Source: a virus (lineage: Duplodnaviria > Heunggongvirae > Uroviricota > Caudoviricetes). From it: a stretch of DNA of 64,000 nucleotides. The DNA lies in the IMG/VR virus record IMGVR_UViG_3300021255_002129; one strand, 5' to 3'. Of this stretch, positions 24,000-41,520 are shown piece after piece (within the stretch, counting starts at the first letter, position 1; the number at the start of each line of letters is the position of its first letter). The notes below the pieces were generated by a model. That model was not told the DNA's origin, did no database searches, and saw only the letters and a list, made by a program, of their open reading frames with translations. The translations under genes and the position numbers were made by a program.

Positions 24000-26249
24000 A
24001 TGAAAGTCATTAAAAGAGACGGTCGTATCGTAGATTTTGATGCGACAAAAATCGAGAGAGCTATTCTCGCAGCATTCCAAGACGTAGATGGTGAAATTAC
24101 TGACTACGCAAAAGAAAAAGCTGAAAATATAGCAAGTTATATTGAAGGGTATTATTTAGATGTAGATGAAACACCTGGAATTGAAGAAATTCAAGATTTA
24201 GTTGAAAAAGGTTTAATGTCAACAAAAAGAAAAGATGTTGCTAAAAATTATATCCTTTATAGAGAAGAAAGAACAAAAATAAGAAATGCAAATAGTAAAT
24301 TGATGCAAAATATTAAAGAGAAGATTGAAGCCTCAGATGTACAAAATCAAAATGCTAATGTTGATGAACATTCATTTGGTGGTCGTATGGGAGAAGCTAG
24401 ATCTGAATTAATGAAAGATTATGCTCTTAATTATATTGTATCTCCTATGGCAAGAGAAAATCATTTAAATAATGAAATATATATTCATGATTTAGATGCG
24501 TATGCAGTTGGTATGCATAACTGTTTAACTGTTCCTTTTGATAAATTATTAGCAGAAGGTTTTAATACTAGACAAACAGATGTAAGACCAGCCCGTTCAA
24601 TTAATACTGCATTTCAATTAGTTGCGGTATTATTCCAATTACAATCTTTACAACAATTTGGCGGAGTTAGTGCGAGTCATTTAGATTGGACTATGGTTCC
24701 ATATGTAAGATTATCATTTAAAAAACATTTTAGAGATGGTATGAAATATTTATGTGATATTGAATTAGATGAAATACCTGATGATACATCCATTGACAAT
24801 GAAATGTATTTAGCATCTCCAAAAGTATATAAGTATGCTATGGATATGACTGAAAAAGAGTTAATGCAAGCTGTCCAAGGAATGTATCATAATTTAAATA
24901 CATTACAAAGTAGAAGCGGAAACCAATTACCATTTACTTCAATTAATTATGGAACTTGTACTTTACCTGAAGGTAGAATGGTTACAAAAGCATTATTAGA
25001 AGGTTCTATTGAAGGTGTTGGTAAAGTTAGAAAAACTCCAATATTCCCATGTGGTATCTTTCAATGTATGAAAGGTGTTAACCGCAAACCAGGAGATCCT
25101 AACTACGATTTATTTAAATTAGCACTTAAATCAACAGCTCAAAGATTGTATCCTAATTATGTTAATGTAGATTGGTCAGTAAATGCTGGATATGATATTA
25201 ACGACCCTAAAACTTATGTTTCAACAATGGGATGCAGAACATACAATGGTGCAGATATCAACGCAGAGCCTGGAACTAATCCTCAAACAAAGGATGGCCG
25301 CGGAAATATTTGTCCTGTTACTATCGTTATGCCGACCTTGGCTATGAAAGCAAAAGAAAAAGCTATTGCAGAAGGTTTTGGAACCACAGACAAAGATTGC
25401 TTAGACCCAGTTAGTGCTTTTATGGAATTATTAGATAAAAAAATTCATGAAGCAAAAGATATGTTATTAGAGAGGTATCATTGGATTATAAATCAATCAC
25501 CTGAAAGTGCTAAGTTTATGTATGAAAATAACATTATGTTAGGTTATGATGGAAAAACAATAGAAAGTGCTATGAAACATGGAACTCTTGTTATTGGTCA
25601 AATAGGTTTGGCGGAAACGCTTCAAATTTTAATTGGTAAAGACCATACAACAAAGGAAGGTATGGAACTTGCTAAAAGAATTGAACAATTATTTAAAGAT
25701 AGATGTGCAGAATTTAAAAAAGATTTGCACTTAAATATAGGGGTATATTATACACCTGCTGAAAATATGTGTTATACTTCAATGAAAAAATTTAAAAAGG
25801 CTTATGGAATTATTCCTAATGTAAGTGATAGAGATTATTTTACAAATAGTATTCATGTTCCAGTATGGAAAGAGATGAGTCCATTTGATAAAATAGACAT
25901 AGAGAGTCAGTTAACTGGTTATAGTAATGCTGGATGTATTACTTATGTAGAATTAGAGGGCGGAGTTAAAAATAATTTAGATGCTCTTGAAGAAATAATT
26001 AATTATGCTATGGATAAAGATATTCCATATTTTGCAATTAATGTTCCAAATGATACTTGTTTAGATTGCGGTTATACTGATGAATTTAATGATAAATGTC
26101 CAATGTGCGGAAGTGAACATATACAACAACTTAGACGTGTTACAGGATATTTAACAGGAGATTACAAAACTGCATTTAATAAAGGAAAACAACAAGAGAC
26201 TGAACAAAGATATAAACATTCTAAAAAATTGGAGAATTGGAATGATTAG
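24000..26249 (+). CDS. nrdD: anaerobic ribonucleoside-triphosphate reductase (class III)
   Basis: N-terminal ATP-cone, C-terminal Zn ribbon 'CLDCGY...CPMCG' and glycyl-radical region 'RRVTGYL'. No TGA. Confidence 0.92.
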   Translation: MKVIKRDGRIVDFDATKIERAILAAFQDVDGEITDYAKEKAENIASYIEGYYLDVDETPGIEEIQDLVEKGLMSTKRKDVAKNYILYREERTKIRNANSKLMQNIKEKIEASDVQNQNANVDEHSFGGRMGEARSELMKDYALNYIVSPMARENHLNNEIYIHDLDAYAVGMHNCLTVPFDKLLAEGFNTRQTDVRPARSINTAFQLVAVLFQLQSLQQFGGVSASHLDWTMVPYVRLSFKKHFRDGMKYLCDIELDEIPDDTSIDNEMYLASPKVYKYAMDMTEKELMQAVQGMYHNLNTLQSRSGNQLPFTSINYGTCTLPEGRMVTKALLEGSIEGVGKVRKTPIFPCGIFQCMKGVNRKPGDPNYDLFKLALKSTAQRLYPNYVNVDWSVNAGYDINDPKTYVSTMGCRTYNGADINAEPGTNPQTKDGRGNICPVTIVMPTLAMKAKEKAIAEGFGTTDKDCLDPVSAFMELLDKKIHEAKDMLLERYHWIINQSPESAKFMYENNIMLGYDGKTIESAMKHGTLVIGQIGLAETLQILIGKDHTTKEGMELAKRIEQLFKDRCAEFKKDLHLNIGVYYTPAENMCYTSMKKFKKAYGIIPNVSDRDYFTNSIHVPVWKEMSPFDKIDIESQLTGYSNAGCITYVELEGGVKNNLDALEEIINYAMDKDIPYFAINVPNDTCLDCGYTDEFNDKCPMCGSEHIQQLRRVTGYLTGDYKTAFNKGKQQETEQRYKHSKKLENWND

Positions 26250-26748
26250 GGTTGCAGGTATTAATGGTAATGATTTCGTCAATGGAGAAGGGGTAAGCGT
26301 TAGTTTATTCCTTCAAGGTTGCCATTTTCATTGTCAGGGATGCCATAATCCAGAAACTTGAGATCCTAACGGCGGAAATATTTGAGATTGAAATGATTTA
26401 ATAAATCATATTATTGAATTAATTTCCGCAAATGGAATACAAAGAAATTTAAGTATTTTAGGTGGAGAACCTTTAGATACTTATGATAAAAGAGATTTCA
26501 TAAAATTACTATTAAAAGTAGTAAAAAATAAATTCCCAAATATTAAAATCTGTTTGTGGACAGGATATACTTTATCTCAATTAAGAGAAGATACTAATTT
26601 AATTGGGGTTGGGGAAATATTAACAACTATAGATTATTTGATTGAAGGCCCTTTTAAACTTAAAGAACGCGACATAACATTAAAATGGCGCGGCAGTCGC
26701 AATCAAAATATTATAAATATGAAAACAGGAGAGATAGAAAATGATTAA
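26242..26748 (+). CDS. nrdG: anaerobic RNR activating protein (radical SAM); three in-frame TGA = Trp
   Basis: 'CHFHCQGCHNPETW' carries the conserved NrdG Trp, which is encoded by TGA. 'NIWDWND' has two more. The ATG overlaps the nrdD end. Confidence 0.85.
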
Positions 26749-26902
26749 CTTTTTAAAAATATTTTTTCCAGCATTAATGGTTACAGGAGCTCTTGGTAGT
26801 TTAATCTTAAATATAATTACTAACAAAACTGAATGACCTGTTTCGTTACAATGGTTTGGAGCAGCATTATTATATACAGCATTATTATTTAGAAATAAAT
26901 AG
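26741..26902 (+). CDS. small two-TM membrane protein (53 aa), one TGA
   Basis: 'MINFLKIFFPALMVTGALGSLILNII...W(TGA)PVSLQWFGAALLY'. It overlaps the nrdG stop. Confidence 0.35.
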
Positions 26903-26907
26903 CAAAG

Positions 26908-26950
26908 GAGGTTAAGTAAGAAATAAAAAATTACTTAACCTCTTTTTTTG
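26908..26950 (+). terminator. rho-independent terminator
   Basis: Perfect 12-bp stem GAGGTTAAGTAA/TTACTTAACCTC followed by TTTTTTTG. Confidence 0.7.
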
Positions 26951-26975
26951 TTATGTTGATAGGAGAGTGTAACAA

Positions 26976-27395
26976 GTGCGAAAAATTACAAAAGAAATGA
27001 TTAAATTATATAATATTAAAAAATTAGGTTATGATTTTATGGGATATACTTTTAGAAATATTAATGAATTAAGTTTTCATCATTTAATAGTTCCTTATAG
27101 AAATTGTAAAAGAGAAGGTCTTGGAGAAGGATATCTATTATGAAATGGTGCAATTCTTAAACAAGAAACTTCCCATGAATATTTACATACTATTGAATTA
27201 TATGATAGAGAATTATTTTTACGAATAACAAAATATATGATACAGGAAAATGAAAATATGAAAATTGATATAGATAATTTAAAAAAAATACGAGAATTAC
27301 TTTTATATTTTGAAGCTGAACATTTAAACGATACAAACAAAAAAGGTAAAAAATTAATTAAAAGAAATTATCTAACAGACCGCATACATTTATAA
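26976..27395 (+). CDS. hypothetical protein (~139 aa), one in-frame TGA at 27141
   Basis: RBS AGGAGAG at 26961, then GTG at 26976 (or ATG at 26997). The frame was verified codon by codon to TAA at 27393. Confidence 0.4.
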
Positions 27396-27397
27396 TT

Positions 27398-27426
27398 TTG
27401 ACTTTTTTTAAAAATAATGATATAAT
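27398..27426 (+). promoter_or_regulatory. early promoter TTGACT-N17-TATAAT
   Basis: TTGACT at 27398-27403 and TGATATAAT ending at 27426. Confidence 0.6.
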
Positions 27427-27456
27427 ATTTATATAAGAATGAAAGGAAGAGTGTAA

Positions 27457-27900
27457 ATGATAAAAAGAATATTAAACTATAGAAATAAAGAAGATAAAGA
27501 GATACTTTCTCAAAAAAGTGAAACAGTAGAAAATATAGATGAAGTAAAAGACCTTATTCAAGATTTAAAAGATACATTACACGCAATTCCAGATGCAAAA
27601 GGACTTTCTGCAATTCAATTAGGAGTTAACAAAAAAGTATGTCTTTGTTCATGGGGCGGTGATGAGATACTACTTATAAACCCAGTTATTACGCGCAGCC
27701 GCGGAGAGCAAGAATATTTAGAAGGTTGTTTAAGTGTCCCTGGAGTATATAAAAAAATAACTAGATTTCAAAAAGTATGGTGTTCATATTTAAATGAAAA
27801 TGGTGAACAACAAGAAATAGCACAGGGTGGTCGTATGAGCGATATTATTCAACATGAGCTAGATCATTTTGAAGGCAAGTGTAAACTATATAATGAATAA
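27457..27900 (+). CDS. def: peptide deformylase
   Basis: Motifs 'EGCLSVPG' and 'HELDH'. Confidence 0.85.
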   Translation: MIKRILNYRNKEDKEILSQKSETVENIDEVKDLIQDLKDTLHAIPDAKGLSAIQLGVNKKVCLCSWGGDEILLINPVITRSRGEQEYLEGCLSVPGVYKKITRFQKVWCSYLNENGEQQEIAQGGRMSDIIQHELDHFEGKCKLYNE

Positions 27901-27916
27901 GAAAGAAGGTATTCAA

Positions 27917-28804
27917 ATGGCAGAGATGAAAATTAAAGGTCTGAAAATGGTTTATTCAGCATCAGAATTAACTATCATCGATAGCTATCAAATTAATAAT
28001 ATTAAAAAAATGAAAAATATTCTAACAGAGGCTTTGGAAAAGGCTGAAACATATATGACCAATAGAAATATGAATTCTCTAATTAATGAATGAATAGCTC
28101 ATAATACTTTTTATAAATTACATTTATTTAGAAAATATACTAAAAATTGTAGTTTTAAAAGAACACAAAATAAAATATTAAATATTATTTATTTTATTTT
28201 TAATATACCAACTAAAATAAAATATAATATAAAAAAATTTAAAGACAATAGAAAAATAAAAAAGCAAGAAAAAAATTATAAAAATTATATAAAAGAACAT
28301 CAAGAAAATGTTAGAAAAGCATTTGAAGAAATTAAAGAAAATCCTATTATATATCAAAGATACAGTGGTGAAATTTTAGATGCTCTATGGGGACGAGTTT
28401 TAATTCACGATAAAAGTAAATATTCTGAAGAAGAATTTGTACCTTATAGAAAAAATTTCTATCCAATAAATGCCGAAGAAAAAGAAGAAAATAAACCAAA
28501 TTTTGATAAAGCCTGGGAGCATCATTGGAAAAACAATTCTCACCATTGGCAATATAGGAAAAATAAAACTTCTTTTGATAAAAATAATAAGGAAGAAGTT
28601 CTTGATGTTTTAGAAAATATATTAGATTGAATTGCTATGGGATATAAATTCAATGACCGCCCATATCAATATTATGAAAATAATAAAAATAATATAATAT
28701 TATGTGAAGATGAAAGAAAATATTTAGAAGATTTAATATATAATGTTATTGATATTGATTATATACAAAAGGAGGATTCAGACGATAATGGAACAAGAGA
28801 ATAA
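27917..28804 (+). CDS. hypothetical protein (295 aa), two in-frame TGA
   Basis: RBS GAAAGAAGG, then ATG at 27917. The frame is open to TAA at 28802 only with TGA read as an amino acid ('LINEWIAHN', 'ILDWIAMG'). The C-terminal part is clearly protein-like. Confidence 0.45.
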
Positions 28805-29201
28805 TGAAAAAAAAGAAATAGAGTTTGGAACTCTTTATGATATAAATAAAAACATAGTAAAACAAAATGAAATAAAATTAAGTGAAGGAGTTTTAAATAG
28901 TAAAAAACAAATTATCGCTGATTTTATTAAAAAATGTAATAACTATTATTATATGTTATTATGCAACGAAAGAAAAGATTATACTGTGTTCCGTTGGGTT
29001 AATATATCTAATGATAATGATGCAAAAGAGATTGCTCAAATACTAGTTGATGAATGCTTAACTAATAGAGGCGAAATCCGCGGAATTGATTTAACAAAAA
29101 CTAAAGATGCTATTGAAATATGGATGGTAATAGATGATGAAGCCTATGTGTATTACTTCTTCCCATATGATAATGCAATAATAGAGGTAGGAGGATTTTA
29201 A
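28788..29201 (+). CDS. hypothetical protein (137 aa)
   Basis: RBS AAAAGGAGGA, then 'MEQENNEKKEIEF...'. Confidence 0.4.
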   Translation: MEQENNEKKEIEFGTLYDINKNIVKQNEIKLSEGVLNSKKQIIADFIKKCNNYYYMLLCNERKDYTVFRWVNISNDNDAKEIAQILVDECLTNRGEIRGIDLTKTKDAIEIWMVIDDEAYVYYFFPYDNAIIEVGGF

Positions 29202-29203
29202 TA

Positions 29204-29470
29204 ATGAAAAAAATTGTTAGTGTTATTAAACCATTTATAGTAAATCAAAATGTTTTTGTTTATGAAGATGGAAATAAAATAGACGTTTTATCTGTGCCTT
29301 TAAATGATATTCAAAACATTTTAGTTAATACAGCTACTCAATATGAAGTAACTGATATAGAATTAATAGGTTCTAAAAAATACTTAAATGGTATTGTTAA
29401 TAAAATTAAAGAAACAGAAATGTCTCAATATAATGAACATAAATTAAATATTAATATAATTAATGGATAG
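29204..29470 (+). CDS. hypothetical protein (88 aa)
   Basis: RBS GGAGGA. Confidence 0.4.
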   Translation: MKKIVSVIKPFIVNQNVFVYEDGNKIDVLSVPLNDIQNILVNTATQYEVTDIELIGSKKYLNGIVNKIKETEMSQYNEHKLNINIING

Positions 29471-29479
29471 GAGGTAAAC

Positions 29480-29731
29480 ATGAAATATCTTATAACTACA
29501 ACTGAAGTTTATAGATTTAGTAGTGAAGATGAAGCAACTAATTTTATTGAAGCTGCAAAGAAAGAGTCTGGATACGTATTAACTAAACATACAGTTGAAT
29601 ATAAAGAAAGAAAACAAAAAGGTGAAGTAATTGATTTTTGGTGAAAGGTTACCCTTGTTAAAAGTTTTAATAATGAAAAAGAACCTGAAACTGATGTTGA
29701 TGTAGAATATAAAGTAGGGAGTGCATTTTAA
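29480..29731 (+). CDS. hypothetical protein (83 aa), one TGA ('DFWW')
   Basis: RBS GGAGGTAAACA, then ATG. Confidence 0.4.
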
Positions 29732-29732
29732 T

Positions 29733-30203
29733 ATGTTTGGAATAGATATACTTGGTAGATATGAAGATAAATTAATTAAATATACAAAATTAAATGAATA
29801 CGCACAAGAGCCAACTAGAGGAAGTGCGGCAGCAGCTGGCTATGACCTTTATGCTGCGATTAGTGATTCTGTAACGATTCCCGCACATTCAACAGTAAAA
29901 ATAGGAACAGGATTAGCTTTTGCATTACCTGATAATACTTTTGCGGCAATATTTGCTAGAAGTGGTCTTGCAACAAAGCAAGGTTTAAGACCTGCTAATT
30001 GCGTTGGTGTATGCGATAGCGATTATCGCGGAGAATATATAGTAGCAGTTCATAATGATACTAATGAAGAAAAAATAATTGAACCAAATGAAAGAATTGC
30101 TCAAATGATATTAATGCCATATATCCCAATGATGTTTGGAGAGGTTGAATCTCTAGATGAAACAGAACGCGGAGAAGGCGGATTTGGAAGCACAGGTGTT
30201 TAA
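29733..30203 (+). CDS. dut: dUTP diphosphatase
   Basis: Motifs 'AAGYDLYA', 'RSGLA', 'DSDYRGE' and 'RGEGGFGSTG'. Confidence 0.9.
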   Translation: MFGIDILGRYEDKLIKYTKLNEYAQEPTRGSAAAAGYDLYAAISDSVTIPAHSTVKIGTGLAFALPDNTFAAIFARSGLATKQGLRPANCVGVCDSDYRGEYIVAVHNDTNEEKIIEPNERIAQMILMPYIPMMFGEVESLDETERGEGGFGSTGV

Positions 30204-30204
30204 T

Positions 30205-30507
30205 ATGGATAAAATACAAAGACATCAAGAATTATTAAATACAATGCATGAATTATACGTAACTAAAAATCATGATTATGGAGATAGTGTTCATGATACA
30301 TATTTAAAATATGGTTTAACATCTTTTTTAGTACGTTTAGAAGATAAGTTAAATAGAGCAAGAACAATTAGTCAAAAAGAACAATTAGTAAAAGACGAAA
30401 AAATTAAAGATACTTTATTAGATTTAGCTAATTATGCAACATTAGCAGTATTAGAATTAGAATGGGAGGAAAGTCAACGTGTACAAGGTGGAGATACAAA
30501 CAACTAA
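30205..30507 (+). CDS. putative MazG-like nucleotide pyrophosphohydrolase-domain protein
   Basis: 'HDYGDSVHDTYLKYGL...FLVRLEDKLNRA' resembles small MazG-like phage proteins. The call rests on recalled motifs only. Confidence 0.35.
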   Translation: MDKIQRHQELLNTMHELYVTKNHDYGDSVHDTYLKYGLTSFLVRLEDKLNRARTISQKEQLVKDEKIKDTLLDLANYATLAVLELEWEESQRVQGGDTNN

Positions 30508-31261
30508 AGGTCAAGTTACAGTAGAAATTAATGACATGACAGAATTGGGAAAAGCATTAGCTCCTTATGAAGATATATACATTAGCTGTAGAGCAAAATA
30601 TTGTGATGGTGTAGCAGAACCTTTAAAAGAAATAAAAAAACCTAAAAAAGAATATAATACAAATGTAACAATTACTAATTTTAATATTGATTGAATGAAA
30701 ATTAAATCAGCATGTATGACTACTATTTCTAAACAAGCTGGAGATAAAGAGCCTTCAGATAACTGGAAAAAGAAATTATTATTAGCAGAGCACTCACCTA
30801 TTAGAAGAGGACAAATAAGTTGGAAATGGGATGAGATTCCTTATGCTATTTCAACTCACTTTGCTAGACATCACGAAGGATGTGAAAAATTTGTAGGAAC
30901 TTCAAGAGAAGATAGAACTGGTGTAGATAGAACAACTCGCTCTCAAATGGATTGTGTTCCTATGGAAATGGATGCTAATATACAAGCATTAATTAACATA
31001 TCTTGGCGTAGATTATGTACATGTGCAGATCCAACTACTAGAAAGTATTGGGAAGCAGTATTAGAAGCTATTAGAGAATATGATGAAAATATTTATTGGG
31101 CTTGTGTTCCTCAATGCATAAGATGCGGCGGATGTGTAGAATTTTCTAATTGTGGTTTCTATGACACATTAATGAAAGATAGTCAACCAGAAGAACAAAA
31201 AGTATTAAAATTAAGATACGATAAATACAATCAATTTAGAGATAAGAAAAATCATAGATAA
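30479..31261 (+). CDS. ThyX-like flavin-dependent thymidylate synthase (divergent), one in-frame TGA at 30692
   Basis: GTG start after GGAGGA. N-terminus 'MYKVEIQTT...CRAKYCDG' and 'LAEHSPIRR...THFARHHEG...TSRE' resemble ThyX. Track ORFs 30479..30694 and 30695..31261 are contiguous in one frame. Confidence 0.5.
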
Positions 31262-31294
31262 AAAATTTTTGGAGATAAAAGGAGAAAAAAGAGA

Positions 31295-32743
31295 ATGAAT
31301 TTAATATTATTAGGAATTATTATTGCAGTAATTATTTTAGTGAGCATATTAGTTGCTGTTAGTTATGTAAAATGCCCGCCCGACATGGTATTTTTAATCT
31401 CAGGTATTAAAAAAGAGCCTAGAGTTATTACAGGAAAGGCCGCATTTAGAATACCTTTCTTTGAAAGGATAGATAAAATACCTTTAAAATTAATTCAAAT
31501 AGATGTTAGAGCAAACAGAGTTCCAACAAATGATTTTATTAATGTTGATGTAGATGCAGTAGCAAATGTAAGAATTTCAACTAAAAATGAATTAATACAA
31601 ATTGCTGCAAAACATTTCTTAAATCAAACAACAAAAGATATTGCAACTAATGTTCAACAAATACTTGAAGGTAATATGCGTGAGATTATTGGACAAATGA
31701 TACTTACTGATTTAGTAAATAATAAACAATTATTCTCACAAAAAATACAAGAAAATGCAATAGATGATATTGAAAAATTAGGACTTGAAATTGTAAATTT
31801 AAATGTTCAAAATGTATCCGATGAAAATGGAGCTATTACAGATTTAGGAATTGATAATCTATCACAAATTAAGAAAAATGCTAAAATAGCAAAAGCTCAA
31901 GCTGATAAAGAAGTAAAAGTTGCTGAAGCGGCGGCAGATGAAGAAGGAGCTCGTGCACGTGCGGAAGCTGACGAAAAAATAGCAGAACAACAAAAAAATT
32001 TATCAATTAAAAAAGCCGAATACAAAATTGAACAGGATAAAAAACAAGCTGATGCAGATGCTGCATATGATATCCAAAAAGCAATACAACAAAAAACTAT
32101 TAACGAAAAACAAGTTGATGCTCAAATAACTAAAACTGAAAAATCAACTGAATTAAAACAAAAAGAAGTCGCTCTAAAAGAGCAAGAACTTGAAGCTGAA
32201 ATTAAAAAACAAGCAGATGCAGAAAAATACGCTGCAGAAATCCAAGCTGAAGTTGATAAAACTCGTGCTATAAAAGCTGCAGAAGCTAAAGCCCAAGCTC
32301 GTATTGCTGAAGCGGAAGCAGAAAAAGAAGCCAATATTAAAGAAGCTGAGGGAATTAAAGCAAAATTATTAGCAGAGGCCGAAGGTAAAAAAGCTATCCT
32401 TCAAGCTGAAGCAGAAGGTATTCGTGCTAAAGGTGTTGCAGAAGCTGAAGGTATTGAAAAGAAAGCTGAGGCTCAAAAGAAAATGGGTGAAGCGTCTATC
32501 GTTGAAATGATTATGAATGCCTTACCACAAGTTGCAAAAGAAGTATCTGCTCCATTAGCTAACGTAGATAATATTACAATGTATGGTGACCAATCAACTA
32601 AACTTATTGAAAATAATACACAAAAAATAGACCAAGTATTAAAAGTAGCTCAAGATAGTTTAGGATTAGACTTAAAGAGTCTTATAGCAGGGTTTGCCGC
32701 AAATAAAGTAATACAAGATAATAAAAAGAAAAGTGATGAATAA
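31295..32743 (+). CDS. SPFH/band-7 flotillin-like membrane protein
   Basis: N-terminal TM segment, an SPFH core ('KCPPDMVFLISGIKK...') and a long Ala/Glu/Lys-rich coiled coil typical of FloT/YuaG. Confidence 0.8.
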   Translation: MNLILLGIIIAVIILVSILVAVSYVKCPPDMVFLISGIKKEPRVITGKAAFRIPFFERIDKIPLKLIQIDVRANRVPTNDFINVDVDAVANVRISTKNELIQIAAKHFLNQTTKDIATNVQQILEGNMREIIGQMILTDLVNNKQLFSQKIQENAIDDIEKLGLEIVNLNVQNVSDENGAITDLGIDNLSQIKKNAKIAKAQADKEVKVAEAAADEEGARARAEADEKIAEQQKNLSIKKAEYKIEQDKKQADADAAYDIQKAIQQKTINEKQVDAQITKTEKSTELKQKEVALKEQELEAEIKKQADAEKYAAEIQAEVDKTRAIKAAEAKAQARIAEAEAEKEANIKEAEGIKAKLLAEAEGKKAILQAEAEGIRAKGVAEAEGIEKKAEAQKKMGEASIVEMIMNALPQVAKEVSAPLANVDNITMYGDQSTKLIENNTQKIDQVLKVAQDSLGLDLKSLIAGFAANKVIQDNKKKSDE

Positions 32744-32760
32744 TCACTTTTTTATTTTAT
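32728..32760 (+). terminator. rho-independent terminator overlapping the flotillin stop
   Basis: AAGTGAT-GAATA-ATCACTT followed by TTTTATTTTAT. Confidence 0.5.
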
Positions 32761-32767
32761 ATAAATT

Positions 32768-32796
32768 TTGACAGTTCTAGAATTTTATGATATAAT
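32768..32796 (+). promoter_or_regulatory. promoter TTGACA-N17-TATAAT (consensus)
   Basis: TTGACA at 32768-32773 and TGATATAAT ending at 32796. It drives the glycosylation cluster. Confidence 0.6.
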
Positions 32797-32823
32797 GTAA
32801 ATATAAAGAAAGAAGGCTTTACT

Positions 32824-33768
32824 ATGAATGATAAAATAGATATAGTAGTTACATACTTAAATGATCAAGACCAGCAGTGACAAGAAGAATTTAATAAATA
32901 TAAACAATATGAAGTTTCTAAAGGATGAATAAATCCCAATAGTATTCAAGCCTTCGGAGAAGAAAGAATAAGAAATTGAGATTTTACTCAGTATTGGTTT
33001 AGAGGAGTAGAAAAATGCTGCCCATGAGTTAATAAAATATTTTTTATAATTCAAAATGAACATCATATTCCAGAATGATTAAATACTACTAATCCAAAAA
33101 TTCGTATAGTATATCATAATGAGTTTATACCAAAAGAATTATTACCTACATTTAATCCTATGACTATTGGATTATATATTAATCAAATTAAAGATTTAAG
33201 CGATAATTATATTATGTGTGACGATGATTATTTCTTTTTAAATCCGATAGATGAAACTAAGTTTTTTATAAATAATAAACCTCAGCATGAAGATAACCAA
33301 GCTCCATATGGATACTTTTACGATGGTGATGAATTTTTACATATAATGAATAATTGCTTTGATTTTGAAAAAAAATATGACGATGGTAAAACAAAATATC
33401 ATTTTTATCATTTACCGACAGCAAGAAATAAAACATTAGAACAAAAAATTTTAAAAGATAATTATAATGATATATTAAATTCTCAAAGAGTTAGTAGATT
33501 TAGATACCCAACTAATTTAGATGCAAATATTTATTCTAATATTTTAAAATTAACTCACAATGCAGATATCCTACCAAAAGGTACTATCTATGGAAATAGT
33601 GCTTATGTTGCATTACAACCAAATATTGATTTTTATCAATATAAAGATAAAGAAATGGTTTGTTTCAATGACGTAGATTTAGTAACAGGGCATTTTGAAG
33701 AAATACAAAAATCTCTTATTGAATTTTTAAAATATAAATTCCCAAATAAGAGTTCGTTTGAGGTGTAA
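32824..33768 (+). CDS. Stealth-family (CR1-CR4) sugar-phosphate transferase; at least six in-frame TGA
   Basis: 'IDIVVTYLNDQDQQW' (CR1-like) and '[37 protein letters not shown]' (CR2-like). In frame with track ORF 33160..33768. Confidence 0.6.
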
Positions 33769-33770
33769 AA

Positions 33771-34565
33771 ATGAAAGAAAAATTTTTTAGTGTTATAATT
33801 CCTAATTACAATAATTCAACATATTTAGAAAAATGTTTAAAATCAGTATTAAATCAAACTTTTACTAATTATGAATTAATTGTAATAGATGATGTTTCAA
33901 CAGATAATAGTGTTGAAATAATTAAAAATATTTTTAATGAATACAAAGATAAAGATACAAAATTAATTGAATTAAAAGAAAAAGCTTGAAATGGCGGTAG
34001 CCGCAATATTGGTATTAAACAAGCTACCGGAAAATATTTTCTATTTTTAGATAGCGACGATTGATTTATGAATAATACTATATTCCAACAAGTCTATGAT
34101 TTTATCATAAGTAAAAATAACCCAGAATTAATTAGACTTTCTTTTGATATATTAACAAAAGATAATTGGCAATTTACAGTATGACTAGATGAAAAAGATT
34201 TAGATGAATTAGCAAATACTTGTTATGTAGCTTCTTGAATAAAATGCATTAGAGCAGATAAAATGATACCCTTTGAAGAAGATACATTAATGGAAGATGC
34301 AATTCAACATATTAAACAAATTGATGTCTTAACTAATTTTGAAGTTTTAAAAATATCCGCCGTATGTCATAATACTCAAAATCCAAATCAATGTAGCTCA
34401 CAAGAAAATAAAAAATTACAAGATGCTAAATGAGAAAAATCAATGCATAAATTTTATCAAAGTTTATTAGATTTAAAATGTAATCACGACTATTGTGAAA
34501 AAAGAAGATTATGAAAAATAGAAGAAGCAAAAGGCCATATTGAAAGAGGAGAGGCTTGACAATAA
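33771..34565 (+). CDS. family 2 glycosyltransferase (GT-A); about seven in-frame TGA
   Basis: 'FSVIIPNYNNSTYLEKCLKSVLNQT...IVIDDVSTD' followed by 'FLDSDD'. Confidence 0.7.
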
Positions 34566-35140
34566 TGAAATTATCAATAATAACACCATATTATAATTGT
34601 CTAAACTATCTTCAAAACTTAGTAAAGGTTTTAGAACCACAATTAACCAATGAAGTCGAATGAATTATTATTGATGATGGCTGCCATGAACAAGAACTTG
34701 ATAAAATTAAAGCAACTATAATACATTTATTAAATAATAGCGGATGTGCAGGAGTCCCTCGCAATTATGGATTAGATATTGCAAAAGGAGATTATATAAC
34801 TTTCGTTGATGCAGATGATTTAGTTTCTAAAGATTTTGTATCTAAAATAATAAATAAAATAAATTTAACAACATTTGATTATTGTTTAATGAGTTGAGAA
34901 AAAATAGATAAATCATTTTATGTAGACGTAACAACTGGAAGACCAGATTGAAACTGTAGTGTGTGAGGTATTATATATAACAAAAATAATTTAAAAAATG
35001 TGCGTTTTAATAATAAAAAATTTGCAGAAGATTATGATTTTAATCAAATAGCATTAAAAGGAAAAGAAGAGAGAATACTTGATTACTTATATTTTTATAA
35101 TAGCAATGAAAATGGACTATCTGCAAATTGGGAAGGATAG
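34565..35140 (+). CDS. family 2 glycosyltransferase (GT-A); four in-frame TGA
   Basis: 'LSIITPYYNC...IIIDDGC...FVDADD'. The ATG overlaps the preceding TAA. Confidence 0.7.
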
Positions 35141-35143
35141 AGT

Positions 35144-36256
35144 ATGGAAAATCAAGAACAATTTTATACAAATATATTCTATTTTGATAGAATAAATAAA
35201 ATAGGCGGAGTTGAGACTTTCTTTTACGAAATAGCAAAAAAATATTGTAATAATGATATTACTGTATTTTATTCTTTTGGAGATTTAAAACAAATCCAAA
35301 GATTAAAAAAGCTTATAAGAGTAGTTAAATACACAGGACAAAAAATAAAATGTAAAAAAGCATTTTTCAATTACAGTTTAAAGCCTATCGACAATATACA
35401 GGCGGAAAAATATTATGAAATTATCCATGCTAATTATAAAGATTTAGGTATTTATCCTAATGTTAGTCCAAAAATAGATGAATATATTGGAGTTAGTCAA
35501 TCTGTATGCAATGCATTTACAGAATTAACTGGTTTACCTTGCACGCTATGTTATAACCCAATTACAATAGATAAGCCTAAAAGAGTATTATATCTTATTT
35601 CTGCAACTAGATTAACAAGAGAAAAAGGAAAAGATAGAATATTAAAACTTGCAAAAGCATTAGATGATGCGAAAATCCCCTATGTTTGAACTATATTTAC
35701 AAATGATACTAAAGAGATAAAACATCCCAGAATAATCTTTATGGAGCCACAATTAAATATTAGAGATTATATCGCTAAATCAGATTATACTGTTCAATTA
35801 AGTGATACAGAAGCTTATTGTTACACGATGATTGAAAGTTTATTATTAAACGTCCCTATTATTGTAACTCCATGAAAATGTTTAAAAGAGTTAAATATAA
35901 CAGAAGAATATGGATTTATATTACCTTTTGATATGGAAGATATTCCTGTAAAAGATATTTATAATAAAGAATTTAATTTTAAATATAAATTAATTCCAGA
36001 TACTTGAAATAAAATAATTGAACCAAGCAAATCTACTTATCAAGAAGAATTAAATGCCAAATATATTGTAGAAGCATTAAAAACATATCAAGATAGAAAT
36101 TTCAAAGATGTTCAATTAGGAATTATTCCTAGTCCTGGTTCTAGATGGACGGTTACAAAAGATAGATTGGATTTATTGTTAGGAGAAAATGAAAATCAAG
36201 AGGCTTATGTAAAATTAATTGACATAGTTAAAGATGATAAAGGAGATGATATATAA
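35144..36256 (+). CDS. GT-B fold (GT1/GT4-like) glycosyltransferase; three in-frame TGA
   Basis: 'GGVETFFYEIAKK', 'ISATRLTREKGKDRIL' and an E-X7-E-like 'ESLLLNVPIIVTP' motif. Confidence 0.65.
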
Positions 36257-36762
36257 TGAATATCTTATCATTAGACCTTTCAACCAAATCAAGCGGCTGA
36301 GCTTATTTTGAAGATGGAGAACTTAAAGATCATGGATGCATTACATCTGCATCTACTGATTTAATTAAAAGAATATATATTATGAGAGATGGGATTGCGG
36401 AAATCCTTGATAAATATGCTGTAACCAAGATTGTTGTAGAAGAAGTTAGACCTGAAGGTGGTTACGGAGTAGGCAATACAAAAACTCATCGAGCTTTAAT
36501 GTGACTTCAGGCAGCAACCGCATTTTTAATTCATGATAATTACCCTTCTATTGAAATAGAATATATATATCCAAGTTCATGACGTGCAGCTTTAGGTATT
36601 AAAAATGGTCGCGGAATAAAGAGGACATCATTAAAAGAGCAAGATATACAATATGTTCAAGATAAATATAATATAAATGTAAATGATGATGAAGCAGATG
36701 CAATATGCATAGGTTTATCACAATATAAAGAAAAAGATGATAATGAAATAAATTGAGCATAA
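36256..36762 (+). CDS. RuvC-like Holliday-junction resolvase; three in-frame TGA
   Basis: 'LSLDLSTKSSGWAYF' (RuvC motif I-like) and 'DDEADAICIG' (catalytic Asp pair). It is the last gene before the convergent terminator. Confidence 0.7.
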
Positions 36763-36801
36763 AAAAAAAGAGGTGGATTAATTTCCACCTCTTTTTTATT
36801 T
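36762..36801. terminator. bidirectional rho-independent terminator at the early/late convergence point
   Basis: A7-AGAGGTGGA-TTAATT-TCCACCTCT-T6ATTTTTATT: a perfect 9-bp stem flanked by an A-tract and a T-tract. Confidence 0.8.
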
Positions 36802-36804
36802 TTA

Positions 36805-37380
36805 TTATAATTCAGCTACAGTTTTTACATTAGTTAAATTAGAAAATTTACTTGTTATCCATCTTTTTGCATTATCATCTGCAACAATTATTTTACAATC
36901 ACTAGGTACGCTATTAAACATTCCAGTATATGAAGTAACATTACCAAAATTAAAATTGCGAATATCTAATAATGTTAATCTTTCACAATTTGCAAACATA
37001 TAGCTCATATCCGTAACCCTATTAGTATTAAAATTACTTAAATCTAAATTAATAATATGATTACAAGCATAGAACATATATCTCATATTATTAACATTTT
37101 CTGTATTAAAAGTACTTACATTTAAACTTGCTAAAACATCACAGTAATAAAACATTTGTGCCATAGTTGTCATTTTAGAAGTATCTAATGCAGCCAATTC
37201 AGGATTTAAGTCTCCTCCCTTATATTCCCTAAAAGATATAAATCTTGGAGAGTATGTAGTAGTAATACTATCAATAGCTTCACTCATATCTTCTGGTTTA
37301 TATTTAGTTGTATTTCCTTTTTTGCCACGAATACTATTTGCAATATTAGTTAAGTATTCTTTAGTTACTAATACTTTCAT
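36805..37380 (-). CDS. DUF285 (BspA/'Mycoplasma-type') repeat protein
   Basis: Tandem ~25-aa repeats such as 'NFNTNRVTDMSYMFANC' and 'NMRYMFYACNHIINLDLSNF' are characteristic of PF03382. Confidence 0.6.
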   Translation of the reverse strand: MKVLVTKEYLTNIANSIRGKKGNTTKYKPEDMSEAIDSITTTYSPRFISFREYKGGDLNPELAALDTSKMTTMAQMFYYCDVLASLNVSTFNTENVNNMRYMFYACNHIINLDLSNFNTNRVTDMSYMFANCERLTLLDIRNFNFGNVTSYTGMFNSVPSDCKIIVADDNAKRWITSKFSNLTNVKTVAEL

Positions 37381-37919
37381 TAAAATTCCACCTCGTCTCC
37401 ATCGATAATTGAATTAATTGCTGCCTCGATTGCCGCTTTCATTTCACTAGTAGTAGGATAATTTGATAAATCAACAGTTTGTGTTCCTAATTTTTCCCAT
37501 TGAGTTGTATATATATATTCATCATATAAATTACTTGTTTCTCCACTATTATTAGGTACTAAATATACAGTAGTTGTACTTATATCTAAAACAGGTAACG
37601 TTTCTACAACAGCAATAGCAAATTTAGGGATAACACTAATCATATTATCTACTTCTGCTTTTGTATATCTGTCATCAATTTCTTCTCTTAATTCAGTATC
37701 ATCATATTCAACTGAGTCCCCTTTTGGACCTTTTAATATAGGAGAAGTATATACATTTCCATTAGTTAAAGTTATTATTAATTCATACTCCGCATTCATT
37801 GTGATTGATGCAATACCTACACCATCTTCACCTTTAGGACCAGCGACACCTAAGTTAGCAAGAGTTAAACCTTTAATTTTATTTCCTGTTTTTCCATTTA
37901 AATCTGCCATCCTACGCAT
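37380..37919 (-). CDS. hypothetical protein with short collagen-like G-X-Y stretches
   Basis: Contains 'GVAGPKGEDGVG' and 'GPKGDS'. Confidence 0.45.
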   Translation of the reverse strand: MRRMADLNGKTGNKIKGLTLANLGVAGPKGEDGVGIASITMNAEYELIITLTNGNVYTSPILKGPKGDSVEYDDTELREEIDDRYTKAEVDNMISVIPKFAIAVVETLPVLDISTTTVYLVPNNSGETSNLYDEYIYTTQWEKLGTQTVDLSNYPTTSEMKAAIEAAINSIIDGDEVEF

Positions 37920-38298
37920 CCTCCTTTATACTTTCTGGATATAGTTTAAAAATCTTTGGACCTTCATCATCATAACCTAAAAGCATTTGTGCGATTGATG
38001 AATCTGGATTTAATTCTATATCATACCAATAATCAGTTGGTTTGTTAATCACAGTTCCTATTTTTGAATCGAAGCTAGTTATAGAAATAGTTACTTCTTC
38101 AGTATCTTCTTCTACTATTGTATCAACAGACATTACAACCATATTTTCTTTGCCTTCTTTTGTAACATTTAATCTAACAACATCTCCTGCAACAAAAGTA
38201 TATGGTTCGCCTTCAGGTGTCAATGCACCAAAAGTAATAGAACCAGATTGACCTCTAGTTACTTTTAAAGTTGTGCCGTCTTCATCTATTATAAACAT
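37912..38298 (-). CDS. hypothetical protein (128 aa)
   Basis: RBS AAAGGAGGCTGG. A TATAAATA element lies upstream. Confidence 0.45.
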   Translation of the reverse strand: MFIIDEDGTTLKVTRGQSGSITFGALTPEGEPYTFVAGDVVRLNVTKEGKENMVVMSVDTIVEEDTEEVTISITSFDSKIGTVINKPTDYWYDIELNPDSSIAQMLLGYDDEGPKIFKLYPESIKEDA

Positions 38299-38369
38299 AA
38301 TATCCAGCCTCCTTTTGAATCTTCTATTTATAAATAAAAACTATCTTTTGTATATTTATTATTTTTACC

Positions 38370-38407
38370 CAAAAAAAAGAAAGCTACAACTAAATATGTT
38401 GTAGCTT
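38370..38407 (-). terminator. rho-independent terminator (minus strand) followed by a conserved TTTTGGGTAAA element
   Basis: AAGCTACAAC...GTTGTAGCTT hairpin, then a T-tract on the minus strand. Confidence 0.6.
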
Positions 38408-38704
38408 ATAGAACACTTTATTTGTTATATTAATTATTTCTTCGCCATAAGTAGCAATAATATCTGCAATTACTTCTTCCTGTTCAAGAGAAAGATAGAC
38501 ATTATAGGAGAACATTGCGGCATGCACTAACTCATGACAAATAACTTTCTTTAGCATACTTCCTTCTAAATTCTCTGCTAAATATATGGTTTTAGTATCT
38601 TTATCGCACATTCCTAATGTACGAACTCCATCCTCGCGGATAAGTATCTCATCTCAAGGATGAACGAATTTCACTCTCCATCCTATTCCATTAATTGTAA
38701 TCAT
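38390..38704 (-). CDS. ImmA/IrrE-family (DUF955) zinc metallopeptidase-like protein, one in-frame TGA
   Basis: HEXXH motif 'ICHELVHAAM' with upstream 'GWRVKFVHPW(TGA)DEI...IYLAENL'. It is extended 5' of track ORF 38390..38611 through the TGA to the ATG at 38702-38704. Confidence 0.55.
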
Positions 38705-39291
38705 TATTTAATTTTTTCTGCTAAAGTGCTTAATTTTTGAGAAAGAATTTCTTTTTCTTCTGGAGTGGCATCATTAATCATTTCCATCATATCTCCGCTT
38801 AATTCTTTCATATATTTTTCTAATTCCATCATTTGTTTTTCTTTTCCTTCATGCATTTCTTTAGATTCCATATACATACGTCTTGAATTGCCACTTCTAC
38901 CTTCGCGGTAATCTCTTAATTCTCTAGGATATACATTTCCATAGTCACGCATTCCGCGGCTATATGCATCTCCATAGTAATAAGGTTCAGGATAATAATA
39001 TCTACCATCTGAATATCCTCTTCCATTACCACGAGCGTTATTTCCCACAGAACCACTTGACATATCTCCACCATTATAATACATAACTGGATAATACATC
39101 ATATTACGAGTTGGTTCTTTTTCTTTATCTTCCATTGCTTCTACGACAGTGCAATAATAAATAGTTTCCTCCAAGTCTTTAATCATATCAACAACTTCGC
39201 CTAATTCTTCAGCATTAGTTTTTGATAAATCTCCCATTTGGCTTTCTACACAAGACATTAGTCTTTCTTTCATTGCTTTTAATCTCTCCAT
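38704..39291 (-). CDS. hypothetical Tyr/Gly/Arg-rich intrinsically disordered protein
   Basis: Low-complexity core 'YYPVMYYNGGDMSSG...RGNGRGYSDGRYYYPEPYYYGDAYSRGMRDYG' flanked by helical Met/Glu/Lys-rich ends. Confidence 0.45.
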   Translation of the reverse strand: MERLKAMKERLMSCVESQMGDLSKTNAEELGEVVDMIKDLEETIYYCTVVEAMEDKEKEPTRNMMYYPVMYYNGGDMSSGSVGNNARGNGRGYSDGRYYYPEPYYYGDAYSRGMRDYGNVYPRELRDYREGRSGNSRRMYMESKEMHEGKEKQMMELEKYMKELSGDMMEMINDATPEEKEILSQKLSTLAEKIK

Positions 39292-39292
39292 A

Positions 39293-39718
39293 TTACGCCA
39301 CCCTTTCCACGATTAAATTAGCGTTTTCCACTAATATATCGTCTGCACTTGTATTTTCTACACTAACTTGAGCGCAACATCCTGCAGGAACATCAATATT
39401 AACATCTCTGCTTACATTGAAAAATTCTTCTACTGCAGCTGGAGTAACTATCATTTTTGTACTAGCAACAGGTTCTCCATCAATAGCAATAGCTACTGAA
39501 ATTGCATCTACAGTTCCTCCTGTTGGTATAGCGATATTACCTCCAAAAGACACTTTAAATCTTGCACGAGGTTGGCAGCAAGTTAGTCCTCTTAAAGAAA
39601 CTAACCCACTTCCATCTCTATGCATTATGGAGTTATTACCACGCACTGGGGTATCTGTAAATAAAATAACTTGATTTGGTTCAACTGTTTGTTGAGCCAC
39701 AGCTGTAAATTCTGCCAT
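39293..39718 (-). CDS. hypothetical protein, possibly a TNF/C1q-like beta-sandwich, with paired Cys-Cys motifs
   Basis: 'LRGLTCCQPRARFKVSFGG' and 'PAGCCAQVSV'. The fold assignment is a guess. Confidence 0.4.
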   Translation of the reverse strand: MAEFTAVAQQTVEPNQVILFTDTPVRGNNSIMHRDGSGLVSLRGLTCCQPRARFKVSFGGNIAIPTGGTVDAISVAIAIDGEPVASTKMIVTPAAVEEFFNVSRDVNIDVPAGCCAQVSVENTSADDILVENANLIVERVA

Positions 39719-39745
39719 ATTTTTATTACCTCCATTTAATTAATT

Positions 39746-40579
39746 TTAATAATTATAGTTGTTAAAGCATCCACCATTGCAGCAATAAGGATTTGGTACA
39801 TTATATGCTGGGATTGGACATGGTCTTAATTGGTCAACTAAATAATTATTTTGTGCGGCTTGAGATGCAGCAAATTTTAATGCTTGATTTTCATCTCTTA
39901 AATCAGCCATCTTATCACTAGTTAATCTATCTAAGATAGCTCTAGTGTTTGCGTTTTGATTTTCTACGATGTCTCTAGTTTGGTCGCAAATATCTTGTCT
40001 AATTCCATTTACTTGAGTTGCTAAGTTGTAATTAGTGTCTGAGAAACCTTTTTCAACTTGGTATCTCATATCGCAGCAGCAACTAGCCATTTGATTTCCT
40101 AATGCAGTAATTTGTGAACCAATAGCATAAGTATTTTGCATATTATTAACATTAACGTCATTAATACCAGATTGTAATTGATATCCTAAATTAGATATAT
40201 TGGTATTAATTGAATTAACACCACTATTAATAGTACCATTTAAATCACAAATACCTTGAATAACATTTGTAGATAAGTTATGATAATCATTACTTAAGTC
40301 TACTCTAGTATCTCTAACTGCATGGTCTAAATCAGAGAAGTTAATTTCATCGGTTAAATCGGCTCTAGTTAAAGCACCTTGCATTGCGGCACTATTGAAA
40401 CTTCCATTTCCGTTACCGAACCAACCTCCATTTCCTCCCCATCCGCCAAATGCGAATAAGAATAAGATGATAATCCACCATCCATCTCCACCGAAGCCAT
40501 TACCAAAGAATCCGCCACGGTTTCCATCTGTTACTGCAGCTATATCTGCTAAACTGTAACCATTATTTGAGCTAAACAT
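39746..40579 (-). CDS. hypothetical Gly/Trp-rich membrane protein with Cys-rich C-terminus
   Basis: 'GFFGNGFGGDGWWIIILFLFAFGGWGGNGGWFGNGNG' (TM segment), 'ASCCCDMRY' and 'PYCCNGGCFNNYNY'. Confidence 0.45.
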   Translation of the reverse strand: MFSSNNGYSLADIAAVTDGNRGGFFGNGFGGDGWWIIILFLFAFGGWGGNGGWFGNGNGSFNSAAMQGALTRADLTDEINFSDLDHAVRDTRVDLSNDYHNLSTNVIQGICDLNGTINSGVNSINTNISNLGYQLQSGINDVNVNNMQNTYAIGSQITALGNQMASCCCDMRYQVEKGFSDTNYNLATQVNGIRQDICDQTRDIVENQNANTRAILDRLTSDKMADLRDENQALKFAASQAAQNNYLVDQLRPCPIPAYNVPNPYCCNGGCFNNYNY

Positions 40580-40619
40580 ACAAACTCTCCTTTCCTATAA
40601 ATATATTATATCTATATCT

Positions 40620-40871
40620 TTAAAGCTTAAAGGTATCCCTAAAAGCTTTAAATTCTTTATCATAATCCATACCACGCTCTTTAGCAATATTACGAACAAC
40701 TTTTTCTATTTCTTCTGTTTTTCCTTCTTTGATTAGATTTGCTAAATTTTGCATGATTGGATTTCCTTGACTTGCAGCTTCATTAACCATGTTTGAAACA
40801 AGAGCTGATGGATCTTGACTCTTAAAGCTACTAATCAATCTAAACATATCTTGAGGACTTCTAATAAGCAT
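40620..40871 (-). CDS. hypothetical protein (83 aa)
   Basis: ORF overlapping the upstream gene's end by 11 nt. Confidence 0.4.
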   Translation of the reverse strand: MLIRSPQDMFRLISSFKSQDPSALVSNMVNEAASQGNPIMQNLANLIKEGKTEEIEKVVRNIAKERGMDYDKEFKAFRDTFKL

Positions 40872-41274
40872 TTACTTTCACATCCTTTGCGGCGGCAGGT
40901 GCTGCAGGCGTAGGGGCTTGCTTTGCCGTACTATTCATCAACGCATCTAATTTTTCATTTAAAGCATTGATTTTTTCTAATAATTCATCTCTTGATGAGA
41001 TTTCTTTTGCTTCCTTAGTTTCCTCTACAGGAATAGGTTTATAAGTGTTGATTTGAGTAGTTCCATTATTATTCCATGACTTGACATAGATTTCACTTAG
41101 GTCTCCTTTTGGGAATACTCCAAATCCGCCAAATGGAACTTCATTCACTCTAACCATATCTACGCTATCAACCACTTTTCCTTGTAATGCGGCAACCGCA
41201 GGTTGAGCTTGTTGAGGCTGATACATATTGCCATACGAATAGTTTTGATAAAAATTATTTGGATAATAGTTCAT
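40861..41274 (-). CDS. hypothetical protein with Q/N/Y-rich N-terminus
   Basis: 'MNYYPNNFYQNYSYGNMYQPQQAQP'. RBS GAAAGGAG, with a TATAAT-like element just upstream. Confidence 0.45.
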   Translation of the reverse strand: MNYYPNNFYQNYSYGNMYQPQQAQPAVAALQGKVVDSVDMVRVNEVPFGGFGVFPKGDLSEIYVKSWNNNGTTQINTYKPIPVEETKEAKEISSRDELLEKINALNEKLDALMNSTAKQAPTPAAPAAAKDVKVNAY

Positions 41275-41480: not shown

Positions 41481-41520
41481 TAAAAAAAGAGGATAACTTA
41501 ATTTTATAAGTTATCCTCTT
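41481..41520 (-). terminator. rho-independent terminator (minus strand)
   Basis: Perfect 13-bp stem AGAGGATAACTTA/TAAGTTATCCTCT flanked by an A/T tract. Confidence 0.65.

Follow-up and report, generated by a model that had tools for sequence, protein, structure and literature searches.

Why would a tailed phage carry a complete flotillin gene, and what would such a gene be worth to it? The question is raised by a stretch of 64,000 nucleotides (hereafter the window) of the IMG/VR virus record IMGVR_UViG_3300021255_002129 (Duplodnaviria; Heunggongvirae; Uroviricota; Caudoviricetes), in which an earlier note had described a 482-aa open reading frame (ORF) at 31295..32743 on the plus strand as a flotillin with an N-terminal transmembrane helix, an SPFH domain and an extended Ala/Glu/Lys coiled coil. 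The account that we put first, and that we hold tentatively, as somewhat less than probable when taken as a whole, is that a functional flotillin of the FloT architectural type was captured from an Erysipelotrichaceae-like Bacillota host and would now circulate as optional, exchangeable cargo among large uncultured gut phages, in which it would be made early and would condition the host membrane. The protein family itself is already known; what is new is its context, as a recurrent, selected, optional phage cargo at a genetic-code boundary.

The architecture was borne out by Pfam, hydropathy and a structure model. The coding sequence starts with ATG, ends with TAA and contains no Trp codon (0 TGG, 0 TGA), and AGGAG at 31280..31284 (+), 10 nt 5' of the ATG, reads as its ribosome-binding site. 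Residues 2-23 (31298..31363, +) constitute a predicted hydrophobic membrane anchor (Kyte-Doolittle maximum 3.5; helix 2-23 modelled at pLDDT ~80) followed by Lys26, an arrangement that by the positive-inside rule would leave the bulk of the protein in the cytoplasm. Next come an SPFH/Band_7 domain at residues 44-205 (31424..31909, +; PF01145, E=1.8e-22, 80.6 bits against a gathering cut-off of 23.6 bits; fold match 1win) and an Ala/Glu/Lys-rich coiled coil at residues 206-400 (31910..32494, +; 24% Ala, 18% Glu and 17% Lys, together 59%), which aligns to the coiled coil of flotillin-1 and is modelled as two very long helices. The C-terminal Flotillin domain PF15975 covers residues 361-430 (32375..32584, +; E=7.6e-9, 36.2 bits against a 27-bit gathering cut-off), where the second stretch aligned to flotillin-1 spans 370-434. 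Three AEAEG repeats (residues 360-364, 371-375 and 382-386; 32372..32452, +) stand out in an alignment of 38 phage homologues: positions 2, 3 and 5 (E, A and G) are invariant in all three, the first A is invariant in the second and third, and conservation of at least 90% is seen at position 1 of the first repeat and at position 4 (E) of the third. Invariant columns of this alignment are spread over the SPFH core, the AEAEG repeats and the C-terminal domain. On the opposite strand, a 70-aa ORF (32122-32334) is a by-product of the low-complexity sequence that codes for the coiled coil.

How close the protein comes to bacterial FloT can be stated precisely. The NCBIfam FloT model NF058507 aligns end to end (protein 9-468 to model 6-476 of 477) with a score of 293 bits (E=4.6e-87), under the 700-bit equivalog cut-off and, because that cut-off is missed despite the end-to-end alignment, the protein is best named a flotillin-family protein with FloT architecture, not FloT proper. 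The earlier identification, as a phage-encoded flotillin/SPFH scaffold with FloT-like architecture, is fully borne out. Like B. subtilis FloT (YuaG), it belongs to a class of ~480-510 aa in which an anchor, an SPFH domain, a long Glu-Ala-repeat coiled coil and a Flot domain follow one another in the same order. Unlike FloT, it is encoded by a phage, is 45-56% identical to the nearest chromosomal flotillins (from metagenome-assembled genomes, MAGs, of Clostridia and Erysipelotrichaceae), has no NfeD-type neighbour, and follows phage early genes instead of standing under sigma-W-type host stress control.

The best homologues returned by the search are flotillins, not coiled-coil proteins outside the SPFH superfamily. 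Human flotillin-1 (E=3e-54) and flotillin-2 (E=7e-45) match over the SPFH domain, the coiled coil and the C-terminal domain, whereas QmcA matches with just E=2.4e-4 and the HflC model weakly, at 26.5 bits over residues 7-158, so that by sequence the protein is nearer to flotillins than to other SPFH subfamilies. The AlphaFold monomer model is of moderate-to-low confidence (pLDDT 63, pTM, the predicted template-modelling score, 0.32; shallow alignment) and is laid out as a transmembrane helix, an alpha/beta SPFH domain, long helices at 180-288 and 297-422, and a helical C-terminal domain. In superposition, its SPFH domain fits the Band-7 domain of mouse flotillin-2 (1win) with a template-modelling (TM) score of 0.76 and a root-mean-square deviation of 2.9 Å, and the flotillin cage subunits 9l3g and 9bq2 are its top PDB fold matches (E ~1e-17); global TM-scores to these subunits are low (0.28), and only the domain-level match and the ranking are relied on. 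We regard the identity of the protein as a flotillin, and the integrity of its gene, as practically certain.

By homology, the N-terminal helix would anchor the protein in the host cytoplasmic membrane, and the coiled coil, the AEAEG repeats and the C-terminal domain would self-assemble into dome-shaped SPFH cages of the kind known from flotillin-1/2 and HflK/C, which would delimit microdomains. We infer this oligomerisation by analogy with the 44-mer cage of human flotillin-1/flotillin-2 (9bq2, 9l3g), whose mechanism the phage protein would be expected to share given the match to flotillin-1 and the top fold matches; the human pair differs in being hetero-oligomeric and in lacking a transmembrane helix, and identity is about 28%. 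The SPFH fold and the general cage principle are also common to the HflK/C-FtsH, QmcA-YbbJ, stomatin, prohibitin and erlin cages, which, together with the weak HflC match, invites a reading in which host FtsH, or some other membrane protease, is surrounded or controlled by the phage cage, which would thereby spare phage proteins. This we consider very unlikely: the protein clearly belongs to the flotillin subfamily, the other cages are distant and have a different coiled coil and C-terminal part, and the neighbourhood contains no gene for a protease or an NfeD partner, the Pfam scan of the neighbours having given no NfeD match.

The gene is carried by a phage with an unusual code. The window is part of a large uncultured gut tailed phage of roughly 136 kb in which TGA is read as Trp in the late genes. 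Up to ~36 kb, its plus strand carries topoisomerase II, NAD ligase, DnaB, primase, RecJ, Dda, a PolIII-alpha-like polymerase, NrdD and dUTPase, and its minus strand carries the tape measure, a tail fibre, a holin and a CHAP endolysin; GC content is ~28%, and the GC skew flips at ~36 kb, the point at which the two blocks of genes run towards each other and meet at a bidirectional terminator (36764-36797). The replication genes use TGG only (19 TGG and 0 TGA in the polymerase), and the glycosyltransferase (GT), RuvC-like and structural genes contain 3-8 TGA each, in two TGA-sense regions at 32824-36762 (+) and 43809-63944 (-). When TAA and TAG are taken as the sole stops, fragments merge into ORFs of 685, 1052, 1377 and 759 aa. 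Downstream of flotillin, in-frame TGA falls where Trp is conserved (as in DSDD[TGA]F of a GT2), and reading it as Trp joins fragments into full-length genes and lifts the Pfam scores of Stealth_CR2 from 28 to 107 bits and of a GT2 from 68 to 110 bits; in the RuvC-like gene, TGG in the relative L013 (L numbers denote individual loci) aligns with TGA in the window and in L069. The fragmented GT cluster was also considered as a set of pseudogenes, a reading rejected for that of recoding. A bacterial (code 4) origin of the window was likewise rejected, since the replication genes are without TGA, structural and lysis genes are present, and the relatives are viral contigs of 130-146 kb.

The identical flotillin protein was found only in unannotated metagenome assemblies, on contigs of up to 136 kb, and megablast of 25000-45000 against deposited phages gave no match. 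A tRNA scan of the 64-kb window returned none, hence no suppressor tRNA is visible in it, and Rfam at the gathering threshold detected no RNA family there. In their late-gene-only TGA recoding and standard-code replication genes, as well as in genome size (~127-137 kb) and bidirectional GC-skew pattern, the 'Agate' gut phages are alike, which makes the phage one of Agate type by its coding pattern; the paper of Borges et al. that describes them (bioRxiv 10.1101/2021.08.26.457843) mentions flotillin 0 times. One consequence of recoding of this kind is that annotation pipelines using the standard code fragment the flotillin neighbourhood and hide the context of the gene.

Flotillin lies exactly where the code changes, following TGG-only replication and nucleotide-metabolism genes and preceding genes with 3-7 in-frame TGA each, and predicted transcription signals mark the same boundary. 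Upstream, the nearest near-consensus promoter is a candidate of sigma-A type at 27398..27426 (+; TTGACT-17-TATAAT with an extended -10 TG; consensus match only), which would put peptide deformylase (27457-27900, +) through dUTPase, the DUF1599 gene, a Cys-rich ORF and flotillin into one unit; within 27457-32743, flotillin is the sole ORF with a hydrophobic segment. At the other end, a terminator-like hairpin followed by a T-run (32721..32760, +; ΔG -13 kcal/mol, z=-4.95) holds the flotillin stop codon in its loop region and is succeeded by a perfect sigma-70/sigma-A consensus promoter at 32768..32796 (+; TTGACA-17-TGnTATAAT, 12/12 match), which is near-identical in L001, L004, L006, L069 and L154. 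This promoter would end the flotillin unit and drive the next one, consisting of the RuvC-like gene and a GT cluster (32824..36256, +; Stealth at 32824-33768, GT2 at 33771-34565, GT2 at 34565-35140 and GT1/GT4 at 35144-36256) that is intact only with TGA as Trp. A host-type promoter thus appears to drive a standard-code unit that ends in flotillin, with a hairpin stop ahead of the TGA-recoded genes; if the 12/12 promoter does drive those genes, they would be gated at translation, not at transcription. Over both strands of the whole window, promoter matches number 7, against 2.65 expected. Five perfect or near-perfect TTGACA-17-TGATATAAT promoters with an extended -10 were noted in the replication/early block, at 4036, 7127, 9532, 27398 and 32768 (+).

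The same junction is the right-hand border of a hypervariable accessory slot (30204..36255, +) between dUTPase (29721-30203) and the RuvC-like gene (36256-36762), which in the window is filled with the DUF1599 gene, the Cys-rich ORF, flotillin and the four GT genes. Relatives were gathered by an independent marker, the polymerase, and 33 loci had enough sequence downstream of it to be compared. Their dUTPase-to-RuvC-like interval ranges from 113 bp to 6 kb and may be empty, hold GT genes only (L154, L159, L161, L213 and others, with varying GT sets), hold flotillin only (L013 and L069), or hold both, flotillin being adjacent to GT genes in the window, L001 and L003-L008. In L154, whose polymerase is 87% identical, the conserved flanks enclose a serine hydroxymethyltransferase gene (19956-21176) where the window has DUF1599, the Cys-rich ORF and flotillin, and homology to the window restarts at 32719; L214 has nothing in the slot but retains the 90-bp junction of hairpin and promoter. 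The right-hand junction (32714-32804) is conserved in both of these loci, each of which lacks flotillin. Further slot variants were seen in L159, L173, L214 and other loci. We are confident that flotillin is exchangeable, accessory cargo at a recombination-prone slot.

This arrangement bears on two suggested roles. The earlier note had proposed that flotillin might organise microdomains for glycosylation by the adjacent GT cluster or for replication at the membrane, and the adjacency of the four GT genes in the window, L001 and L003-L008, as well as the place of the flotillin-family gene of phage csAssE-Sib within a replication module, speak for such a scaffold. The GT half of the proposal is weakened by the separate promoter and terminator of the cluster and by its different coding regime (TGA-recoded, against a code-neutral flotillin), by the independent occurrence of flotillin-only and GT-only slots, and by non-syntenic phage groups (B and C, below) whose flotillin has no GT neighbours; as to the replication half, most close relatives lack the gene and replicate without it, and it therefore cannot be an essential replication factor. 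In our estimation a scaffolding role of either kind is highly improbable. Optional cargo in a hypervariable slot with its own terminator and promoter is also a typical setting of host-interaction genes and, given apparently early expression and independent uptake by different phage lineages, would suit superinfection exclusion or counter-defence, in which an early scaffold blocks the entry of rival phage DNA or buffers the membrane against abortive-infection effectors. We rate this as quite unlikely, because the alternative cargo in the slot is metabolic (serine hydroxymethyltransferase, DUF1599) and not defensive, because the PADLOC defence models contain no family for flotillin or either of its flanking ORFs, and because no precedent was found in the literature.

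Where else does this flotillin occur, and where did it come from? The best 120 database matches are all at least 72% identical, many of them on contigs of 130-146 kb, and a wider sample falls into three groups of phage. Group A shares the gene order of the window, is for the most part TGA-recoded, and has flotillins 71-96% identical. Large phages without that synteny make up group B; their flotillins are 66-71% identical, and the neighbouring genes include ThyA, FolD and terminase (by sequence motifs), SpoVG (by Pfam; next to flotillin in L009, L010, L012 and L070) and dUTPase (by homology to the window gene). Group C comprises mostly TAG-recoded phages of 100-200 kb (L019-L068 and L230-L309; coding density rises by 10-28 points when TAG is read as sense) with flotillins 42-50% identical, set in a cassette of metallophosphoesterases, flotillin, a 145-aa protein of no known family, a 78-aa membrane protein, PIN-PhoH, an Amidase_2 endolysin and a further membrane protein. 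Neither group B nor group C has GT genes beside flotillin. Group C was sampled through PhoH by means of an alignment, as a single-sequence PhoH scan of viral contigs gave only near-identical relatives; flotillin is present in 53 of the 65 loci so obtained and cleanly absent from 12. The claim that flotillins are uncommon in phages accordingly holds for deposited phages (by tblastn 9 of 50,697 records match, several only over short fragments) and fails for some uncultured lineages, such as group C.

In 60/60 bootstrap replicates of a neighbour-joining tree, groups A and B are united with each other and with an Erysipelotrichaceae MAG flotillin (L071), group C stands apart (77% support), and a clade of all phage flotillins appears in 0/60. 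This topology would imply at least two separate entries of flotillins into phages, and the way in which A and B nest suggests that the gene has also passed from phage to phage. Both conclusions are provisional, the tree having been built from distances with its bacterial side limited to the best 80 matches. The L071 flotillin has the housekeeping neighbours LspA and RluD and, as in the window, no NfeD neighbour. Two of the contigs, L069 (CANPWX010000001.1, labelled Bacilli) and L070 (CACYRE010000001.1, labelled Erysipelotrichaceae), are apparently phage contigs binned as bacterial MAGs, the former being syntenic with the window and the latter sharing the group B neighbour genes (SpoVG, dUTPase, terminase-like).

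Phage-encoded SPFH membrane proteins have been recorded before, under the name 'flotillin family protein' in both csAssE-Sib (OR575929) and Vibrio phage KIT04 (LC487410) and as PHROG 200 ('lipoprotein'), and the csAssE-Sib gene likewise lies among early replication genes. The csAssE-Sib and KIT04 proteins differ in being 23-32% identical and matching in the SPFH domain alone, and a search of PHROGs with the window protein gave nothing beyond a weak match to phrog_200, the SPFH 'lipoprotein' family. One paper describes it as unexplained that a phage should have an SPFH lipoprotein (PMC13239085), and our survey of the literature, which was incomplete in coverage, found no functional study of a phage flotillin.

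Is the captured gene of any use to its carrier? In pairwise comparisons with 12 full-length homologues at 66-96% identity, the ratio of nonsynonymous to synonymous substitution (dN/dS) is 0.07-0.29 at a synonymous divergence of up to ~1.7, a pattern by which the flotillin is under purifying selection and functional, though optional. That it is a neutral passenger, a recent host-gene capture with no role in infection, would fit a dispensable gene in a recombination-prone slot. It is scarcely credible in view of these ratios, of a reading frame that is intact despite its divergence from the nearest bacterial flotillins, of a GC content fully matched to that of the phage, and of retention in most of the sampled loci of another lineage, group C. 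On at least two occasions, then, phages would have acquired a whole flotillin, which purifying selection has since maintained, in one gut-phage lineage of 100-200 kb in ~80% of sampled loci, and this capture and retention would mean that flotillin activity alone, apart from host regulation, gives a measurable benefit in infection. Natural variants with and without flotillin between identical flanks offer a ready-made comparison.

As to when the gene would be expressed, group C provides a second boundary. Its Gln-rich flotillin genes contain 5 TAG against 850 CAA/CAG codons, compared with 671 against 3137 in the other genes of the loci; the genes immediately 3' of flotillin have 16-30% TAG and two upstream families 0%. 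The Amidase_2 endolysin, PhoH and the small membrane proteins are heavily TAG-recoded, and the upstream phosphoesterases and flotillin are not. In both of the independently acquired cases, each with a different recoding, flotillin thus closes the run of standard-code genes, and a recoded block follows. Under the model of Borges et al., its position at the standard-code edge would therefore make it translatable before the code switch, and we think it probable that flotillin is made early or in mid-infection, before the change to the alternative code. Standing where the recoded block begins, the gene may further be of use as a marker of the early-to-late transition in code-switching phages.

Early synthesis would suit a role in lysis timing, the third of the functions that the earlier note had put forward, by which flotillin cages, or the altered membrane order that they bring about, would retard or sharpen the triggering of the holin and thereby fix the latent period. 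Being made before the recoded late and lysis genes fits a preparatory role, and in group C flotillin lies 2-4 genes upstream of the Amidase_2 endolysin and of two small membrane proteins, c6 and c11. The former (78 aa; for example L030 10566-10802, two genes 3' of flotillin) is found in 40/41 of the flotillin-positive loci and in 6/12 of the flotillin-negative ones, an association that is crude, ignores phylogeny and concerns short divergent proteins that are hard to detect. Support from position is confined to that group, where PhoH still stands between flotillin and the endolysin; in the window, the holin (49968-50393, -) and the CHAP endolysin (50767-51945, -) are 17 kb away on the opposite strand, and most relatives lyse without flotillin. 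Lysis timing remains, on balance, an unlikely explanation.

We favour membrane conditioning instead: the gene appears to be expressed early, its product has the canonical architecture intact, the cargo that replaces it in the slot is metabolic, and host flotillins have ties to envelope stress and membrane fluidity. The likeliest benefit to the phage would be the conditioning or stabilising of the host membrane during a long infection, that is, the upkeep of fluidity and of membrane protein complexes and resistance to envelope stress, with a supply of flotillin that does not depend on host expression. The sigma-W envelope-stress regulon of B. subtilis, which reacts to stresses including phage infection, includes floA and floT (PMC8581546), and a further report places membrane fluidity and peptidoglycan synthesis under flotillin control (PMC7360373). 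By analogy with these host proteins we take a conditioning role to be possible, with more room for doubt than for belief.

Several points weigh against the account as a whole. Flotillin is present in just 5/33 of the polymerase-defined relatives and absent from 28/33, which makes it dispensable and any benefit conditional. Its timing rests on gene position, on consensus promoter matches and on analogy with the TAG-recoded lineage; promoter-like matches overall are no commoner than in shuffled sequence, and, the window flotillin being without Trp, avoidance of TGA says nothing about timing in its own lineage. The structure model is of moderate-to-low confidence (pLDDT 63, pTM 0.32). The function of bacterial flotillins is itself debated, which leaves 'membrane conditioning' a broad statement.

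A more specific possibility is that flotillin acts as an early-made membrane shield or timer peculiar to large code-switching phages, encoded in the standard code so as to be made before the switch, with cages that would sequester holins, FtsH or suicide effectors by which the host attacks the membrane, and so keep the membrane intact until the recoded late programme is done. Such a device would explain why independently captured flotillins stand at the boundary between standard and recoded genes in both TGA- and TAG-recoded lineages; we think it hardly likely.

Among the neighbours of flotillin scanned with Pfam, the 188-aa Cys-rich ORF directly upstream and a 152-aa ORF (28743-29201) are without a match, and the remainder match dUTPase, DUF1599 and glycosyltransferase families. 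The DUF1599 'nucleotide modification associated' gene (30157-30507) adjoins a 71-aa ORF that ends at a TGA in frame with the Cys-rich ORF; the latter has no PHROG match either, and the recoded reading would fuse the two (together 30479-31261, +) into a protein of 260 aa. In some group C loci (L042, 7549-10398; L045, L046, L049, L064, L065 and L067), a cassette is inserted directly after flotillin which, by sequence motifs, encodes a radical-SAM/SPASM-like enzyme of ~430 aa and a Cys/Gly/Ser-rich repeat protein of 234-253 aa, and which looks like a peptide-modification pair. NrdD is intact in the window (24000-26249, 749 aa) and is called in two pieces of 258 and 470 aa in L001 (2698-4956), a relative whose flotillin is 96% identical. 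Lastly, with one TGA read as Trp, 7568-8500 (+) encodes a 310-aa protein in which an N-terminal hydrophobic helix and a long coiled coil are joined to a C-terminal GIY-YIG nuclease, an unusual combination.

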